64,000 bases of DNA from Escherichia coli (GTDB lineage: Bacteria; Pseudomonadota; Gammaproteobacteria; Enterobacterales; Enterobacteriaceae): the NCBI RefSeq assembly GCF_003334305.1, contig NZ_QOWS01000016.1. One strand, given 5' to 3'. Below, in pieces: positions 13,400 to 43,248 of the stretch. Below the pieces are notes generated by a model. The model saw nothing but the letters and a program-made list of their open reading frames with translations, ran no database searches and was not told where the DNA came from. The stretch's first letter is position 1; each line of letters begins with the position of its first letter. Position numbers and translations under genes: made by a program.

Positions 13400-14320
13400 A
13401 TGCTTAATTACGTTATCAAACGATTACTGGGGTTGATTCCGACGCTGTTTATCGTCTCGGTGCTGGTGTTTTTATTTGTGCATATGCTGCCCGGCGATCC
13501 GGCGCGATTGATTGCCGGGCCCGAAGCTGATGCGCAGGTTATAGAACTGGTGCGTCAGCAGCTGGGGTTGGATCAGCCGCTGTATCACCAGTTCTGGCAC
13601 TATATCAGCAATGCTGTGCAGGGGGATTTTGGCCTGTCGATGGTGTCGCGTCGTCCGGTTGCCGATGATATTGCCAGCCGCTTTATGCCAACGCTGTGGC
13701 TGACCATAACCAGTATGGTCTGGGCGGTGATATTTGGTATGGCGGCGGGAATTATCGCCGCCGTCTGGCGTAATCGTTGGCCGGATCGATTGAGTATGAC
13801 CATTGCGGTGTCGGGGATCTCGTTTCCGGCATTTGCGCTGGGGATGCTTTTAATTCAGGTATTCTCCGTTGAACTGGGCTGGCTGCCTACCGTGGGAGCA
13901 GACAGTTGGCAGCACTACATTTTACCCTCCCTGACGCTCGGCGCGGCAGTGGCAGCCGTGATGGCGCGCTTTACCCGCGCGTCGTTTGTCGATGTTTTAA
14001 GCGAAGATTATATGCGTACCGCGAGGGCGAAAGGGGTGAGCGAAACCTGGGTTGTCCTCAAACACGGGCTACGTAACGCGATGATCCCGGTAGTGACCAT
14101 GATGGGCTTACAGTTTGGCTTTTTGCTCGGTGGTTCTATCGTGGTGGAGAAAGTTTTCAACTGGCCCGGACTTGGACGCTTACTCGTTGACTCCGTAGAA
14201 ATGCGCGATTACCCGGTGATTCAGGCGGAAATTCTGCTTTTCTCGCTGGAATTTATTCTTATCAACTTAGTGGTGGATGTGCTTTACGCCGCCATTAACC
14301 CGGCTATCAGGTACAAGTAA
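13400..14320 (+). CDS. gsiC: Glutathione ABC importer permease
   Basis: 306 aa, hydrophobic; DppB/OppB-like permease. Confidence 0.9.
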
Positions 14321-14322
14321 GG

Positions 14323-15234
14323 ATGCGACTATTTAACTGGCGACGTCAGGCGGTGTTAAACGCCATGCCACTGGTCAAACCTGACCAGGTGCGTACACCG
14401 TGGCATGAATTCTGGCGACGATTTCGCCGTCAGCATATGGCGATGACCGCCGCATTATTCGTTATTTTATTGATTGTGGTGGCCATTTTTGCACGCTGGA
14501 TCGCTCCCTATGACGCCGAAAATTATTTTGATTATGACAATCTGAATAACGGACCTTCTTTGCAGCACTGGTTTGGCGTCGATTCACTGGGGCGCGACAT
14601 TTTCAGCCGTGTCCTGGTTGGTGCGCAAATCTCGCTGGCGGCGGGCGTGTTTGCCGTGTTTATCGGTGCGGCGATAGGGACGTTGCTGGGCTTGCTGGCT
14701 GGATATTATGAAGGCTGGTGGGATCGGCTGATCATGCGCATTTGCGATGTGCTGTTTGCCTTCCCGGGTATTTTACTGGCGATCGCTGTTGTTGCGGTGT
14801 TGGGAAGCGGCATTGCTAACGTGATTATCGCAGTCGCCATTTTTTCCATCCCCGCGTTTGCCCGCCTGGTGCGCGGCAACACGCTGGTGTTGAAACAGCA
14901 AACCTTTATTGAGTCAGCACGCAGTATTGGTGCCAGCGATATGACCATTTTATTGCGTCATATCTTGCCTGGGACCGTCTCGTCTATCGTGGTGTTTTTC
15001 ACCATGCGCATTGGCACCTCGATTATCTCTGCCGCCAGCCTGTCATTTCTCGGCCTCGGTGCGCAGCCGCCGACACCAGAGTGGGGAGCAATGCTCAATG
15101 AGGCACGAGCGGATATGGTTATCGCGCCGCATGTCGCTGTTTTTCCGGCCCTGGCTATTTTTCTGACCGTACTGGCGTTCAATTTGTTGGGCGATGGTTT
15201 ACGCGATGCGCTGGATCCGAAAATTAAAGGATAG
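14323..15234 (+). CDS. gsiD: Glutathione ABC importer permease
   Basis: 303 aa, hydrophobic; DppC/OppC-like permease. Confidence 0.9.
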
Positions 15235-15411
15235 TTACGTTTGAATATTGCTTGAAAGGGTAATCACCTCACAGGAAATTATTGCCCTAAGCAAGTGTTG
15301 TAACTTTCTGCTGATTTTGTAGAATCGGGTAATTTGGTTAAAAAGCCGCAGCAAGGGACTATTTTTGCAGCGGCACAGCGTTCAGATAGTTATTTTGTTA
15401 AATGTATTAAC

Positions 15412-17760
15412 ATGCTGAGTTTATACGAAAAGATAAAGATAAGGCTGATAATTTTATTTTTATTGGCAGCACTGTCATTTATTGGTCTTTTTTTCATCAT
15501 TAACTATCAACTGGTATCGGAACGCGCGGTAAAACGTGCCGATAGCCGCTTTGAACTTATTCAGAAAAACGTTGGCTATTTCTTTAAAGATATTGAACGT
15601 TCGGCCCTGACATTAAAGGACTCACTGTATTTATTAAAAAATACAGAGGAGATTCAACGCGCCGTGATTCTGAAAATGGAAATGATGCCATTTTTAGACT
15701 CGGTGGGACTGGTACTTGATGATAATAAATATTATCTCTTTTCACGGAGGGCGAATGATAAAATCGTTGTTTATCATCAGGAACAAGTAAATGGACCGCT
15801 TGTCGACGAGTCAGGGCGGGTTATTTTTGCCGATTTTAACCCATCGAAACGACCGTGGTCGGTGGCTTCAGATGACTCTAACAACAGCTGGAATCCGGCA
15901 TACAATTGCTTTGATCGTCCGGGTAAAAAATGTATCTCTTTTACGCTACGTATCAACGGCAAAGATCACGATTTGTTAGCGGTAGATAAAATTCATGTCG
16001 ATTTAAACTGGCGGTATCTGAACGAGTATCTTGATCAAATCAGCGCTAATGATGAAGTTCTATTTTTGAAACAAGGTCATGAGATCATTGCCAAGAATCA
16101 ACTCGCTCGTGAAAAACTGATTATTTATAATAGCGAAGGTAATTATAATATTATTGATTCTGTCGATACGGAGTATATTGCAAAGACATCAGCAGTGCCA
16201 AATAATGCATTGTTCGAAATCTATTTTTATTATCCTGGCGGTAATTTATTGAACGCATCAGATAAACTTTTTTATCTACCGTTTGCGTTCATTATTATCG
16301 TGTTGCTGGTGGTATATTTCATGACCACTCGTGTGTTCCGTCGGCAATTTTCTGAAATGACCGAGCTGGTTAATACGCTGGCGTTTTTGCCCGACTCAAC
16401 GGATCAAATCGAGGCTCTGAAAATTCGCGAAGGCGATGCGAAAGAGATTATCAGCATCAAAAATTCGATCGCGGAAATGAAAGATGCCGAAATTGAACGG
16501 TCAAATAAATTGCTCTCACTGATCTCTTACGATCAGGAAAGCGGTTTTATTAAAAATATGGCGATTATTGAGTCCAACAATAATCAGTATCTGGCTGTGG
16601 GGATCATCAAACTGTGTGGTCTGGAAGCCGTGGAAGCGGTGTTTGGTGTTGATGAACGCAATAAAATCGTCAGGAAATTGTGTCAGCGAATTGCCGAGAA
16701 ATATGCGCAATGCTGCGATATCGTGACATTCAATGCCGATCTCTATTTACTTCTGTGTCGGGAAAATGTACAGACATTTACCCGTAAAATAGCGATGGTA
16801 AACGATTTTGACAGCAGCTTTGGCTACCGCAATCTGCGCATCCATAAGTCTGCCATTTGTGAACCTTTGCAGGGGGAAAACGCCTGGAGTTACGCAGAAA
16901 AACTGAAACTGGCGATTTCCAGTATCCGTGACCATATGTTCTCCGAGTTTATTTTTTGTGATGACGCGAAACTCAACGAAATAGAAGAGAATATCTGGAT
17001 TGCGCGTAATATTCGCCATGCAATGGAAATTGGCGAACTATTCCTCGTCTATCAACCGATCGTTGATATTAACACCCGCGCCATTCTGGGCGCGGAGGCG
17101 TTGTGCCGTTGGGTTTCTGCGGAGCGGGGGATCATTTCACCGCTGAAGTTCATTACCATTGCTGAAGATATCGGGTTTATCAATGAGCTGGGTTATCAGA
17201 TTATTAAAACGGCAATGGGTGAATTCAGACATTTTAGTCAGCGTGCGTCGCTGAAGGATGATTTCTTACTGCATATTAATGTTTCGCCCTGGCAGTTAAA
17301 CGAACCGCACTTTCATGAGCGTTTTACCACCATCATGAAAGAAAATGGCCTGAAGGCGAACAGCCTCTGTGTTGAGATCACTGAAACCGTGATCGAGCGA
17401 ATTAATGAACATTTTTATCTCAATATTGAACAACTGCGTAAACAAGGGGTACGGATATCGATTGATGACTTTGGCACCGGTTTGTCAAACCTGAAACGTT
17501 TTTATGAAATTAATCCAGACAGCATAAAGGTGGACTCGCAATTTACCGGCGATATTTTCGGTACTGCGGGAAAAATTGTGCGCATTATTTTCGATCTGGC
17601 ACGCTATAACCGGATCCCGGTGATTGCGGAAGGCGTAGAGAGCGAAGACGTTGCGCGCGAATTAATCAAATTAGGATGTGTTCAGGCCCAAGGGTATCTG
17701 TACCAGAAACCCATGCCATTCTCCGCCTGGGATAAAAGTGGAAAATTAGTAAAAGAGTAG
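15412..17760 (+). CDS. pdeI: c-di-GMP phosphodiesterase (EAL) with N-terminal periplasmic sensor region
   Basis: ATG 15412 gives 782 aa (YliE); N-terminal TM helix, large periplasmic region, second TM, then an EAL domain ([14 protein letters not shown]). Confidence 0.85.
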
Positions 17761-29855: not shown

Positions 29856-30392
29856 ATGCGTCGCGCTAACGATCCGCAACGGCGAGAAAAAATTATCCAG
29901 GCCACGCTGGAGGCGGTGAAACTTTACGGAATACATGCTGTTACGCACCGCAAAATTGCTACCCTTGCCGGGGTACCGTTGGGATCGATGACCTACTATT
30001 TTTCAGGAATTGATGAGTTGTTGCTGGAGGCGTTCAGCAGTTTTACTGAGATTATGTCCCGGCAATATCAGGCATTTTTTAGCGATGTTAGTGATGCTCA
30101 AGGCGCATGCCAGGCTATCACCGATATGATCTACAGCTCACAGGTTGCAACGCCGGATAATATGGAGCTGATGTACCAGCTCTACGCGCTGGCTAGCCGA
30201 AAACCGCTATTAAAAACGGTAATGCAAAACTGGATGCAGCGCAGTCAGCAAACGCTCGAACAATGGTTTGAACCCGGAACCGCCCGCGCGCTTGATGCGT
30301 TTATTGAGGGGATGACGCTGCATTTTGTCACCGACCGTAAGCCGCTATCGCGCGAGGAGATTTTGAGGATGGTTGAGAGGGTTGCAGGGTAG
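29856..30392 (+). CDS. rcdA: TetR-family transcriptional regulator RcdA
   Basis: ATG 29856 gives 178 aa starting [21 protein letters not shown] with a TetR HTH. Confidence 0.85.
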
Positions 30393-30411
30393 TAGATAAG
30401 TTTTAGATAAC

Positions 30412-30490
30412 AAAAAACCCATCAACCTTGAACCGAAATGGCGGGGTTGATGGGCTCCACAAAATGGGGACATCAAAGAAAAGCAGTGGC
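30412..30490 (-). ncRNA. rybB: RybB small RNA (sigma-E-dependent, Hfq-binding)
   Basis: Minus-strand sequence GCCACUGCUUUUCUUUGAUGUCCCCAUUUUGUGGAGCCCAUCAACCCCGCCAUUUCGGUUCAAGGUUGAUGGGUUUUUU matches RybB as I recall it, with terminator hairpin and U-tail. Confidence 0.9.
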
Positions 30491-30525
30491 ACTAATTAAG
30501 ACTGATGCCCTGCGGAAAAGTTCTG
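30491..30525 (-). promoter_or_regulatory. Candidate sigma-E promoter of rybB
   Basis: On the minus strand, GAACTT (-35-like) and TCTTA (-10-like, consensus TCNAA) at suitable spacing upstream of the RybB 5' end. Confidence 0.45.
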
Positions 30526-30566
30526 CGGTTGTGCAAAAAAATTTCATTTTCAGGGCAACTTCAGTT

Positions 30567-32252
30567 TTATCCTAATCCTGGCCATACCATGACGATGATT
30601 GTCCCTGCCAGCGTCAGCAGGACGTTGGCGATTGCGTAGGTGCCCGCGTAGCCCAGCGCAGGGATGTTACTGCGAGCTGTATCACTGATGATCTCCATTG
30701 CCGGCGCGCAGGTGCGTGCGCCCATCATTGCGCCGAACAACAGTGCGCGGTTCATTCGCAATACATAAGCACCGAACAAGAAACAGATAACCACGGGCAC
30801 AAGACTGACAATTAATCCGGCAATCAACATCTGACCGCCAATCGCGCCCAGGCCGTTATTAATACCGCTACCGGCGCTCAGACCAACGCCTGCCATAAAC
30901 ACCATCAAGCCGAACTCTTTCACCATGCTTAATGCACCTTGCGGAATGTAACCGAAGGTCGGGTGGTTAGCACGCATAAAGCCCAGCATAATTCCGGCGA
31001 ATAACAACCCGGCAGCGTTCCCCATGCCGAAACTGAATGTGCTGAACTGGAAGGTGATCATCCCGATCATCAGCCCAATAACAAAGAAGGCGCAAAATGC
31101 CAGCAGGTCAGTGACCTGGCTGTGAATCGAGATAAAGCCGATGCGATCGGCGATGGTTTTTACGCGACGGGCATCACCGCTGACTTGTAAAACGTCACCT
31201 TTGTTAAGCACGACGTTGTCATCTATCGGCATCTCAATCTGGCTACGAATGACGCGGTTAAGGAAGCAACCGTGATCGGTCAACTTCAGTTGTGCGAGAC
31301 GTTTACCTACAGCGTTATGGTTTTTAACGACCACTTCTTCAGTGACGATACGCATGTCGAGAAGGTCACGATCGAAAACTTCTTTACCGTTACGGAAGCT
31401 GGGATCGAGTCGGGCATGGGCGTCGGGATAGCCTACCAACGCTATTTCATCGCCCATTTGTAGCACGGCATCACCGTCTGGATTTGCCAGAATCCCGTTA
31501 CGTCGAATACGTTCAATGTAGCAGCCGGTTTGTCGATAAATACCCAGTTCACGCAGATTTTTGCCGTCGGTCCAGGCCACCAGCTCCGGGCCGACGCGAT
31601 AGGCGCGGATCACCGGTAAATAAACCTTACGGTTGGCATCAGTGTCCAGGCCACGTTCGCGGGCGATTTGCTGGGCGCTGGTCTGTAAGTCCTGATGCTG
31701 CAATTTCGGCAAGTAACGCGCACCAACAATCAAACTCACCAGACCGATTAAATAGGTTAAGGCATACCCGAGGCTCAGATTATCCAGTGCCAGTGAGAGC
31801 TGCCTGCTTTCCATGCCGGAATGACGCAGTGTATCGCCAGCACCGACCAGAACCGGTGTCGACGTCATAGAGCCTGCTAACATACCGGCCGTCAGGCCAA
31901 TATCCCAGCCAAACAGCTTACCTAACCCTAAGGCGATCACCAGCGCACTGCCAACCATCACCAGTGCTAACATTAGGTAATTTTTCCCATCGCGAAAAAA
32001 AATGGAAAAAAAGTTCGGTCCGGCTTCGACCCCGACGCAGAAAATAAACAGCATAAAGCCAAGATTAAGCGCATCGGTGTTAATGCTGAAATGTTGTTGG
32101 CCTAATAACAGCGATACGACTAAAACGCCAATGGAATTACCCAGTTGGATCGAACCAAGTCGTAACTTTCCGAGACATAGCCCAAGCGCGAGGACCACAA
32201 ATAATAACAGAATGTAATTCCCATTTAACAATTCGGCGACGTTTATATTCAC
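30567..32252 (-). CDS. ybjL: Putative transporter of the AAE (YidE/YbjL) family with two cytoplasmic RCK_C-like domains
   Basis: 561 aa; hydrophobic N- and C-terminal halves separated by a soluble central region. Confidence 0.9.
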
Positions 32253-32928: not shown

Positions 32929-33186
32929 TCAGGCGTCCAGATTTTCTTTCACCCATGCAGCAAAATCGGTATAGCCGCCGATATGTTGCTGATCGACAAA
33001 AATCTGCGGCACGGTTTCTACGGGTTTACCTGCCTTTTGTTGTAGATCTTCTTTAGTGATCCCTTCCGCACGAATATCTACATACTGATACTGAAAATCA
33101 TCGCGTTCATTGCTCAATTTCTCAGCCAGATCTTTTGCACGCACACAGTAAGGGCAACCCGGACGACCAAAAATAACGGTTTGCAT
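32929..33186 (-). CDS. grxA: Glutaredoxin 1
   Basis: ATG 33186 gives 85 aa starting MQTVIFGR.GCPYC with the CPYC active site. Confidence 0.9.
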   Translation of the reverse strand: MQTVIFGRPGCPYCVRAKDLAEKLSNERDDFQYQYVDIRAEGITKEDLQQKAGKPVETVPQIFVDQQHIGGYTDFAAWVKENLDA

Positions 33187-33345
33187 TATTTCTCTCCTCA
33201 TAGATTTATGCCTGTAATGATCACGCTAAAATGTATTCGCTGAAAGTAGGTTTAACCTGTTGCATTAATTGCTAAAAGCTATAACTGTTAAACACAATAC
33301 AGTGAAAAGTTTTAGACTGAAGGCTCACTTTGCAGAGGGAAGCGT

Positions 33346-33633
33346 ATGCGCGCGATCGGTAAATTGCCTAAAAGCGTGTTGATACTGGAATTTATCGGAA
33401 TGATGTTGCTGGCGGTGGCGCTGCTGTCGGTAAGCGACTCCCTGTCGCTGCCTGAGCCATTTTCTCGGCCAGAAGTGCAGATTCTGATGATTTTTCTCGG
33501 TGTTTTGCTCATGCTTCCCGCTGCGGTGGTGGTTATTCTTCAGGTGGCAAAACGTCTTGCCCCACAGCTGATGAACCGTCCACCGCAATATTCACGTTCA
33601 GAAAGAGAAAAAGATAATGACGCCAACCATTGA
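33346..33633 (+). CDS. ybjC: Small membrane protein YbjC
   Basis: 95 aa, hydrophobic; overlaps nfsA start by 17 nt as in the ybjC-nfsA-rimK-ybjN operon. Confidence 0.7.
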   Translation: MRAIGKLPKSVLILEFIGMMLLAVALLSVSDSLSLPEPFSRPEVQILMIFLGVLLMLPAAVVVILQVAKRLAPQLMNRPPQYSRSEREKDNDANH

Positions 33634-34339
33634 ACTTATTTGTGGCCATCGCTCCATTCGCCATTTCACTGATGAACCCATTTCCGAAGCGCAGCGTGAG
33701 GCGATTATTAACAGCGCCCGTGCGACGTCCAGTTCCAGTTTTTTGCAGTGCAGTAGCATTATTCGCATTACCGACAAAGCGTTACGTGAAGAACTGGTGA
33801 CGCTGACCGGCGGGCAAAAACACGTAGCGCAAGCGGCGGAGTTCTGGGTGTTCTGTGCCGACTTTAACCGCCATTTACAGATCTGTCCGGATGCTCAGCT
33901 CGGCCTGGCGGAACAACTGTTGCTCGGTGTCGTTGATACGGCAATGATGGCGCAGAATGCATTAATCGCAGCGGAATCGCTGGGATTGGGCGGGGTATAT
34001 ATCGGCGGCCTGCGCAATAATATTGAAGCGGTGACGAAACTGCTTAAATTACCGCAGCATGTTCTGCCGCTGTTTAGGCTGTGCCTTGGCTGGCCAGCGG
34101 ATAATCCGGATCTTAAGCCGCGTTTACCGGCCTCCATTTTGGTGCATGAAAACAGCTATCAACCGCTGGATAAAGGCGCACTGGCTCAGTATGACGAGCA
34201 ACTGGCGGAATATTACCTCACCCGTGGCAGCAATAATCGCCGGGATACCTGGAGCGATCATATCCGCCGAACAATCATTAAAGAAAGCCGCCCATTTATT
34301 CTGGATTATTTGCACAAACAGGGTTGGGCGACGCGCTAA
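33617..34339 (+). CDS. nfsA: Oxygen-insensitive NADPH nitroreductase A
   Basis: 240 aa; matches NfsA. Confidence 0.9.
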   Translation: MTPTIELICGHRSIRHFTDEPISEAQREAIINSARATSSSSFLQCSSIIRITDKALREELVTLTGGQKHVAQAAEFWVFCADFNRHLQICPDAQLGLAEQLLLGVVDTAMMAQNALIAAESLGLGGVYIGGLRNNIEAVTKLLKLPQHVLPLFRLCLGWPADNPDLKPRLPASILVHENSYQPLDKGALAQYDEQLAEYYLTRGSNNRRDTWSDHIRRTIIKESRPFILDYLHKQGWATR

Positions 34340-34399
34340 AACCGCCACGTCGATGTATGATACGCGGGCTTTTGACCAGGTCTGACAGAGAGGTGCAGG

Positions 34400-35302
34400 G
34401 TGAAAATTGCCATATTGTCCCGGGATGGAACGCTCTATTCGTGTAAGCGGCTGCGTGAAGCCGCTATACAGCGCGGTCACCTGGTTGAAATTCTTGATCC
34501 GCTTTCTTGCTACATGAACATAAATCCTGCGGCGTCTTCTATTCACTACAAAGGCCGCAAGTTACCCCATTTTGACGCAGTGATCCCGCGTATTGGCACC
34601 GCCATTACCTTTTATGGGACGGCGGCACTGCGCCAGTTCGAGATGCTGGGGAGCTATCCGCTCAATGAGTCGGTCGCCATTGCCCGGGCGCGTGACAAAT
34701 TGCGTTCCATGCAACTGCTGGCGCGTCAGGGCATCGACCTGCCTGTCACGGGCATTGCGCATTCGCCGGATGATACCAGCGATTTAATCGACATGGTCGG
34801 TGGTGCGCCGCTGGTGGTCAAGCTGGTTGAAGGCACGCAGGGAATTGGCGTCGTGTTGGCGGAGACGCGTCAGGCGGCGGAAAGCGTGATTGACGCTTTC
34901 CGCGGTCTGAACGCGCATATTCTGGTGCAGGAATATATCAAAGAGGCGCAAGGGTGCGATATCCGCTGTCTGGTTGTTGGTGATGAAGTGGTCGCTGCGA
35001 TTGAACGGCGAGCGAAAGAGGGCGATTTTCGTTCCAATTTGCATCGTGGCGGCGCGGCAAGCGTCGCCAGTATCACACCACAGGAGCGTGAAATCGCGAT
35101 AAAAGCCGCGCGAACGATGGCGCTGGACGTTGCTGGTGTGGATATTCTGCGTGCTAATCGCGGGCCGTTGGTGATGGAAGTGAATGCGTCGCCAGGGCTG
35201 GAAGGAATAGAAAAAACAACCGGTATCGACATCGCGGGTAAAATGATCCGCTGGATCGAACGCCACGCTACGACGGAATATTGCCTGAAAACGGGTGGTT
35301 AG
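34400..35302 (+). CDS. rimK: Ribosomal protein S6 glutamate ligase (ATP-grasp)
   Basis: 300 aa; ATP-grasp fold; matches RimK. Confidence 0.9.
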
Positions 35303-35866: not shown

Positions 35867-36141
35867 TAACTCCTTTCGAGCACGCAGTCGCTGGTGCAGT
35901 GGCTGCGCGCTGCAAAATTATCTGCTGTTTTTAACCTTTTCTTAAAGATTGTTTCACTTATCTTGTGTCGATTTGGCTTTATCACATAGAGCAAATACGC
36001 ATAAAAATTTGTTAAATACCGTTTTTTAATCCGAGCTATAGTCTCAAACCCTGGCTAAAGTTATTCTTGCGATGCTTTTATATAGCGAGCAGTGCTGGCC
36101 GGGAGAGAGTTCTCTTTTCTTACACCGCGCCGATAAAAAAT

Positions 36142-42098: not shown

Positions 42099-42128
42099 CA
42101 GATTGCTGATCAGGTGCGCTTTGTTCAT

Positions 42129-42228
42129 GCCGGATGCGGCGTGTACGCCTTATCCGGCCTACAAAATCATGCTAAATCAATACATTGCAGAGTTGATGTG
42201 GGCCGGATAAGCGCAGCGCATCAGGCAA
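42129..42228. repeat. REP/BIME element pair between rlmC and artJ
   Basis: gccggatgcggcgtgtacgccttatccggcctaca and an inverted partner ggccggataagcgcagcgcatcaggcaa match REP consensus units. Confidence 0.7.
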
Positions 42229-43157: not shown

Positions 43158-43248
43158 TGTAGGCCGGATAAGGCGTCCACGCCGCATCCGGCACAGGCAC
43201 CGTGCTGATGTCTGATGCGACGCTGGCGCGTCTTATCAGACCTACAAA
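43158..43248. repeat. REP elements between artJ and artM
   Basis: tgtaggccggataaggcgtccacgccgcatccggca and tgtctgatgcgacgctggcgcgtcttatcagacctacaa match REP consensus types. Confidence 0.7.

Follow-up and report, generated by a model that had tools for sequence, protein, structure and literature searches.

The sRNA gene rybB and its sigma-E-type promoter between rcdA and ybjL in an Escherichia coli contig

The minus strand of positions 30412-30490 in the 64-kb window (the whole stretch of Escherichia coli DNA analyzed here, 64,000 nt) almost certainly carries rybB of Escherichia coli as an independent transcription unit driven by sigma-E. All sequence features expected of RybB were found, namely a full-length score against the family model, the 5' seed, a covarying terminator with U-tail and the position downstream of ybjL, and no evidence contradicting the identification of RybB or of its sigma-E promoter emerged from the analysis. 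The finding is an ordinary one, the gene being already known and intensively studied.

Results

Identification of rybB

The entire 64-kb window was scanned against all 4227 Rfam families. RF00110 (RybB) matched positions 30487-30409 of the minus strand with 105.3 bits (gathering score 40, E value 1.3e-20), and the match spans model positions 1-79 of 79 with no truncation. As the covariance score exceeds the gathering score by a factor of more than 2.5, this demonstrates family membership. An earlier note on this DNA had assigned the minus strand to RybB and had named a failure to align with members of the RybB family as the outcome that would refute this; the sequence aligned fully, and the assignment is further backed by its identity with rybB of K-12. 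Relative to the annotated gene the Rfam model is shifted by 3 nt: it leaves out the first 3 nt at the true 5' end and extends 3 nt beyond the annotated 3' end. The curated K-12 ncRNA rybB (b4417, 79 nt, 887979..888057) maps to 30412-30490, which shows that the left coordinate chosen in the earlier note is the annotated 3' end. Direct reading of the minus strand from the 5' G at 30490 to the 3' U at 30412 gives the 79-nt sRNA sequence GCCACUGCUUUUCUUUGAUGUCCCCAUUUUGUGGAGCCCAUCAACCCCGCCAUUUCGGUUCAAGGUUGAUGGGUUUUUU.

From 30405 to 30560, a segment that covers the gene, its promoter and an upstream A/T tract, the window is base-for-base the same as K-12 MG1655, and the two copies of RybB (b4417; RF00110) also share neighbours and orientation. 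A 601-bp query around the locus (30200-30800) was 100% identical with several E. coli chromosomes and 99.2% identical with K-12; the window strain and K-12 differ here only in the ybjL coding sequence, in which all 5 of the 601 bases that deviate are located. When the 126 bp of gene and promoter (30405-30530) were used as query, 5419 of the 5426 complete E. coli genomes gave a match, 5196 of them with at least 99% identity. In a few cases the rybB segment matched records that bear a plasmid label (7 places with the 30405-30530 query, 11 places with the 30200-30800 query), and single E. coli genomes have up to 3-4 places that match it. These plasmid-labelled or multiple matches could reflect misassembled or mislabelled replicons, or duplications.

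Genomic neighbourhood of rybB

As described in the earlier note, the gene is located between rcdA and ybjL. rcdA is encoded on the plus strand and its TAG stop codon (30390-30392) lies 19 nt from the 3' end of rybB, while the end of ybjL (minus strand, 30567-32252) precedes the rybB 5' end by 76 nt. The same two genes, rcdA and ybjL, are annotated beneath the 601-bp match in E. coli chromosomes, and the location of rybB in the ybjK/rcdA-ybjL intergenic region of E. coli and Salmonella has been stated before (PMC1804206).

The conservation set was obtained by scanning genomes of 100,044 species with the first 20 nt of RybB. Exact matches were found in the genomes of at least 120 species, giving at least 120 stretches, and the genera matched were Escherichia, Salmonella, Citrobacter, Klebsiella, Enterobacter, Serratia, Yersinia, Hafnia, Proteus, Providencia, Xenorhabdus and others. 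Because selection was by an exact 20-nt match, RybB positions 1-20 are conserved by construction in this set and the most divergent homologues lie outside the sample. Among the matches listed, ybjL is located upstream of rybB on the same strand in 97 of the 113 loci that had room for it, and RcdA is the downstream neighbour in 27 loci only.

Beyond rybB the 600 bp downstream contain neither RcdA nor Ogr in 70 loci, so that the flank turns over and the linkage of ybjL to rybB is kept. Six loci from other species have an Ogr homologue directly beyond rybB (among the matches listed).

A conserved sigma-E-type promoter precedes rybB

Upstream of rybB the minus strand contains GAACTT at 30523-30518 and TCTTA at 30501-30497, separated by a spacer of 16 nt, and TCTTA is followed by the +1 G (30490) after 6 nt. 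The sigma-E-like spacing of these two elements had been pointed out in the earlier note and was recovered here, with both blocks conserved in 112 sequences. Relative to +1, the sigma-E-type -35 element GAACTTT occupies -33 to -27 (30517-30523) and the -10 element GTCTTAA -12 to -6 (30496-30502). The published sigma-E consensus is GGAACTTTT for the -35 and GTCAAA for the -10 element (PMC1804206). The -35 region of the window, aGAACTTTT, agrees with it at 8 of 9 positions and the -10 region, GTCTTA, at 4 of 6 positions of GTCAAA; at both deviating -10 positions T is the commonest base among the RybB promoters (among the matches listed). Both motifs are thus present, about 16 nt apart and with a short discriminator before +1, as expected of a sigma-E promoter.

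The spaced pattern GAACTT-N15-17-TCTNA has a single match in the 64-kb window, which is the one in front of rybB. About 0.17 matches per window are expected by chance, and for this reason the spaced motif is weak evidence when taken by itself. What lifts it beyond chance is its location directly before the RybB 5' end together with its conservation. The latter was analyzed in 116 usable loci anchored on +1, from which 112 distinct upstream 75-mers were compared without gaps (among the matches listed). The columns of GAACTTT (-33 to -27) were each conserved to 98-100%. In and around the -10 element, A at -13 was conserved to 93%, GTC at -12 to -10 to 100%, A at -7 to 100% and A at -6 to 95%, followed by T at -4 (99%), A at -3 (93%) and T at -1 (100%). 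The spacer (-25 to -14) was variable, with about 0.1-0.6 bits. Across these 112 distinct sequences from Enterobacterales (among the matches listed) the motif blocks are thus fixed relative to +1 while the spacer drifts. This conservation is not built into the sample, since the loci were chosen by the 5' end of the RNA and not by the promoter. Further upstream, the A/T tract AAATTTTTTT (30535-30544, minus strand; -54 to -45) corresponds to a stretch of A and then T that is conserved to 57-89% in columns -53 to -45. As judged from sequence comparison, the whole pattern corresponds to an ECF-type promoter footprint that includes an UP-like element. The UP-elements of sigma-E promoters have been modelled as A/T tracts in a promoter set that includes rybB (PMC3326320), and the tract at -54 to -45 probably has this function at the rybB promoter.

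Alternatively, RybB might be made by read-through and processing of the 3' UTR of the ybjL mRNA, the match to GAACTT and TCTTA being coincidental. The short distance of rybB from the ybjL stop on the same strand and the widespread linkage of the two genes would suit such an origin, and the spaced motif is not statistically rare, as at least one match appeared in 16 of 100 shuffled sequences. However, two blocks conserved almost without exception at a fixed distance from +1, amid surroundings that drift, are the signature of a functional promoter, and published rybB promoter fusions were strictly rpoE-dependent (PMC1804206; PMC4102768). We therefore regard read-through from ybjL as very improbable and transcription from the sigma-E-type promoter as the origin of RybB.

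In the literature, the same sigma-E motifs were shown in rybB of several species and the activity of the promoter fell close to background in a delta-rpoE strain (PMC1804206); the rybB promoter is also counted among the strongest sigma-E promoters (PMC4102768; PMC12249550). By virtue of the identical sequence studied in these publications, transcription of rybB in the window would be expected to depend on rpoE as well. A promoter scan of positions 30000-31000 yielded no sigma-70-like promoter. In 2025 it was described that NsrR lowers the activity of the rybB promoter without robust binding to it, and a protein-protein effect on sigma-E was proposed (PMC12249550). As robust binding of NsrR was absent in that study, an additional operator for a DNA-binding repressor is not claimed at rybB.

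Seed, terminator and U-tail of the RNA

The 5' seed region GCCACUGCUUUUCUUU (30475-30490, minus strand) includes CACUGCUUUU at 30488-30479, which represents the CRCUGCUUUU seed common to the sigma-E-dependent sRNAs RybB, MicV and VrrA (PMC6694218). Structural conservation was assessed in an alignment of 117 sequences with 89 distinct rows (among the matches listed), in which RNA positions 21-25, just beyond the part used for selection, are invariant in all 117 sequences.

The 3' part forms a Rho-independent terminator hairpin at 30416-30456 (minus strand), as seen in both the Rfam structure and the MFE fold. It consists of a 12-bp stem (30456-30445 paired with 30427-30416) and a loop of 17 nt that encloses a small GCC/GGU helix, and it is followed by a U6 tail (30412-30417, by direct reading) that is nearly invariant in the alignment; the terminator hairpin and U-tail of the earlier note were thus both found. 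The RNA folds with -25.2 kcal/mol, compared with -16.8 ± 2.5 kcal/mol for shuffled sequences (z = -3.3). In the terminator stem 99% of the alignment cells were paired, whereas controls with the stem slid along the alignment gave 19-49%. Seven of the 12 pairs were altered on both sides, with compensatory changes that include A-U to G-C, U-A to A-U and C-G to U-A. For the whole structure a covariation of 0.263 was calculated, against 0.130 ± 0.006 after shuffling (none of 500 shuffles reached 0.263) and at most 0.041 with partners slid by 1-3 columns.

A 5' helix CCAC/GUGG that is present in the MFE fold was rejected, as it showed zero covariation and its A-U pair is broken in 27 of the 89 distinct sequences. 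The absent support for this helix fits a 5' seed that would be single-stranded. A simple terminator scan, which accepts loops of 3-8 nt, missed the RybB terminator; this is not counterevidence, since the 17-nt loop is beyond the range of the tool. In published work, the 3' part of RybB served as a scaffold described as 'Hfq binding domain and rho-independent terminator' (PMC6694218).

The 3' end of rybB is an attachment site for P2-like prophages

The 601-bp query was non-contiguous in 1128 of 5423 complete E. coli genomes (about 21%). The split genomes that were sampled break at query positions 194-210, corresponding to 30393-30409 of the window at the 3' end of rybB, and in both genomes inspected a P2-like prophage adjoins rybB at the junction with its ogr/gpD/tail end. 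In NZ_CM172040.1 the prophage is about 35 kb long, with ogr adjoining rybB and the integrase adjoining rcdA. The sequence ATGGGTTTTTTGTT was found at both of its junctions (positions 455-462 and 35960-35973 of the extracted locus), and rybB is regenerated intact on the ybjL side after integration. In the window this attB core of P2-like (Felsduovirus) prophages is located at 30409-30422 on the minus strand, where it shares 11 nt with the 3' end of rybB; no prophage occupies it. The use of rybB as attachment site for P2-like prophages has already been published: rybB was listed as hotspot #29, occupied by Felsduovirus prophages only (PMC10121019), and in E. coli W, B and Crooks P2-like prophages were reported to be inserted at the 'rybB ncRNA' (PMC3032704). 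Other tRNA, tmRNA and sRNA genes with an attB at the 3' end, such as ssrA and, for P2-like phages, cyaR, resemble rybB in this respect, as here too the 14-nt end of the rybB region is duplicated at the prophage ends and the gene is restored. Unlike the occupied sites of this sRNA/tRNA type, the rybB attB of the window is empty, and the att feature belongs to the locus in the species.

Two variable spots of the NZ_CM172040.1 prophage (positions 13837-15940 and 33072-34748 of the extracted locus) encode an AAA ATPase with a DUF4435 protein and, beside the repressor and integrase, a protein with a 'SNIPE associated domain'. These accessory genes look like defence cargo, consistent with the published description of defence hotspots.

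The proximity of an att core and of a convergent gene raises the question whether the hairpin serves mainly as a terminator for rcdA or as a phage attachment site, with the RybB-like sequence being a non-functional relic in this genome. The rcdA stop codon, only 19 nt away on the opposite strand, and the P2-like att core formed by the last 14 nt would both be compatible with such a role. The entire gene and promoter, however, are the same as those of the functional K-12 copy, and on the plus strand the stem is not followed by a run of T, which makes the hairpin a poor intrinsic terminator for rcdA. Moreover, among the matches listed the RNA is conserved in all loci, whereas rcdA lies downstream in the 27 loci mentioned above only. 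A relic is accordingly even less probable than read-through from ybjL, and the attachment site is better seen as a feature of a functional rybB gene.

Past the U-tract, the sequence after GTT (window 30400-30408) reads ATCTAAAAC in E. coli and GCCTGAAAT in most other enterobacterial genera (among the matches listed). The GCCTGAAAT version also occurs in E. albertii and E. whittamii, both of which have rcdA downstream. At the lysogen junction in NZ_CM172040.1 (positions 463-475 of the extracted locus), GTT followed by ATCTAAAAC is replaced by GTT followed by GCCTGAAAT, by which GCCTGAAATTT is restored. Recombination of P2-like phages takes place within the final 14 nt of the rybB region, so that lysogens swap the bases immediately downstream. 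The conserved motif past the U-tract could have a function of its own or could merely reflect the history of the att site. That prophage integration at the 3' end of rybB, or the conserved downstream motif, affects the formation of the RybB 3' end (termination efficiency, 3'-end length or Hfq loading) is a speculative idea to which we give little credence.

Annotation of the locus and other RNA elements in the window

The earlier note had remarked that rybB is absent from the open reading frame track, in agreement with the RefSeq/PGAP annotation, in which no feature lies under the rybB segment (30405-30530) in any of the E. coli matches listed. The curated K-12 record alone carries the rybB ncRNA, and elsewhere the gene is systematically unannotated. 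That an unannotated rybB was recovered from raw sequence indicates that the scan was working correctly.

Least likely of all, to the point of being negligible, is a small protein encoded by one of the short overlapping ORFs in the open reading frame track (30345-30476, minus strand, 43 aa, TTG start; 30438-30575, plus strand, 45 aa; 30505-30639, plus strand, 44 aa), as conservation is of the RNA type with compensatory changes in the stem, indels of 1-3 nt across species would break the frames, and a CDS annotation is absent at the locus in K-12 and in the E. coli matches listed.

The statement of the earlier note that rybB is the only RNA gene in the window can be upheld with a single reservation. 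Neither a tRNA nor a tmRNA was found in the 64 kb, and besides rybB no other annotated ncRNA of K-12 lies in the corresponding region of about 64 kb. The reservation concerns a second RNA element recognised by Rfam and missing from the earlier note, naRNA4 (CssrE, a REP-type nucleoid-associated RNA), which matched 43162-43242 on the plus strand above the threshold (78.5 bits vs 59.5) in a region that corresponds, by collinearity with K-12, to the artJ-artM intergenic region. Weaker naRNA4 matches were obtained at 43162-43242 and 42123-42159, both on the minus strand, and up to an E value of 0.1 the scan of the whole window gave no additional matches other than naRNA4/REP.

Discussion

Family membership, identity with K-12, promoter geometry and conservation, covariation of the terminator and synteny with ybjL were computed here. 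Dependence on sigma-E and Hfq, seed pairing and the target set are derived from publications on Salmonella and on the K-12 copy, which has the identical sequence; accordingly, RybB of the window would likewise bind Hfq and repress omp mRNAs (PMC1804206, PMC4102768, PMC6694218). In this model, accumulation of unfolded outer-membrane proteins would lead to degradation of RseA and release of sigma-E (RpoE). RNA polymerase with sigma-E would then use the -35 element GAACTTT (30523-30517) and the -10 element GTCTTAA (30502-30496), start at the G at 30490 and produce the 79-nt RybB, which would end at the intrinsic terminator formed by the stem at 30456-30416 and U6. Hfq would bind RybB via its 3' part, and the single-stranded 5' end GCCACUGCUUUUCUUU would be able to pair with many omp and other mRNAs. 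This pairing would block translation and speed mRNA decay, thereby lowering porin synthesis, easing the envelope stress and, as feedback, damping sigma-E. The targets described for RybB are mainly mRNAs of outer-membrane proteins, e.g. OmpC and OmpA, which are subject to repression and decay (PMC1804206, PMC4102768, PMC6694218).

MicA and MicL, the other enterobacterial members of this group, share the promoter class with RybB and are likewise sigma-E-induced, Hfq-binding sRNAs that repress abundant mRNAs of envelope proteins (PMC4102768). They are, however, not homologous to RybB, and their sequences, loci and target sets differ; MicL, for instance, is embedded in cutC and targets lpp, unlike RybB. 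MicV and VrrA of Vibrio cholerae have the CRCUGCUUUU seed and the control by sigma-E in common with RybB, which can replace them functionally (PMC6694218), but they belong to other RNA families and Vibrio is without RybB.

As gene and promoter are the same as the experimentally studied K-12 copy, the window makes no open question testable. If an influence of P2-like integration or of the downstream motif on the RybB 3' end were nevertheless true, the envelope-stress output of roughly one in five E. coli strains would be slightly altered, or else the downstream motif would itself be functional. The significance of the present finding is one of annotation only: RybB, a model among Hfq-dependent sRNAs and central to the envelope-stress response governed by sigma-E, carries no label in thousands of E. 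coli genomes annotated automatically by PGAP.
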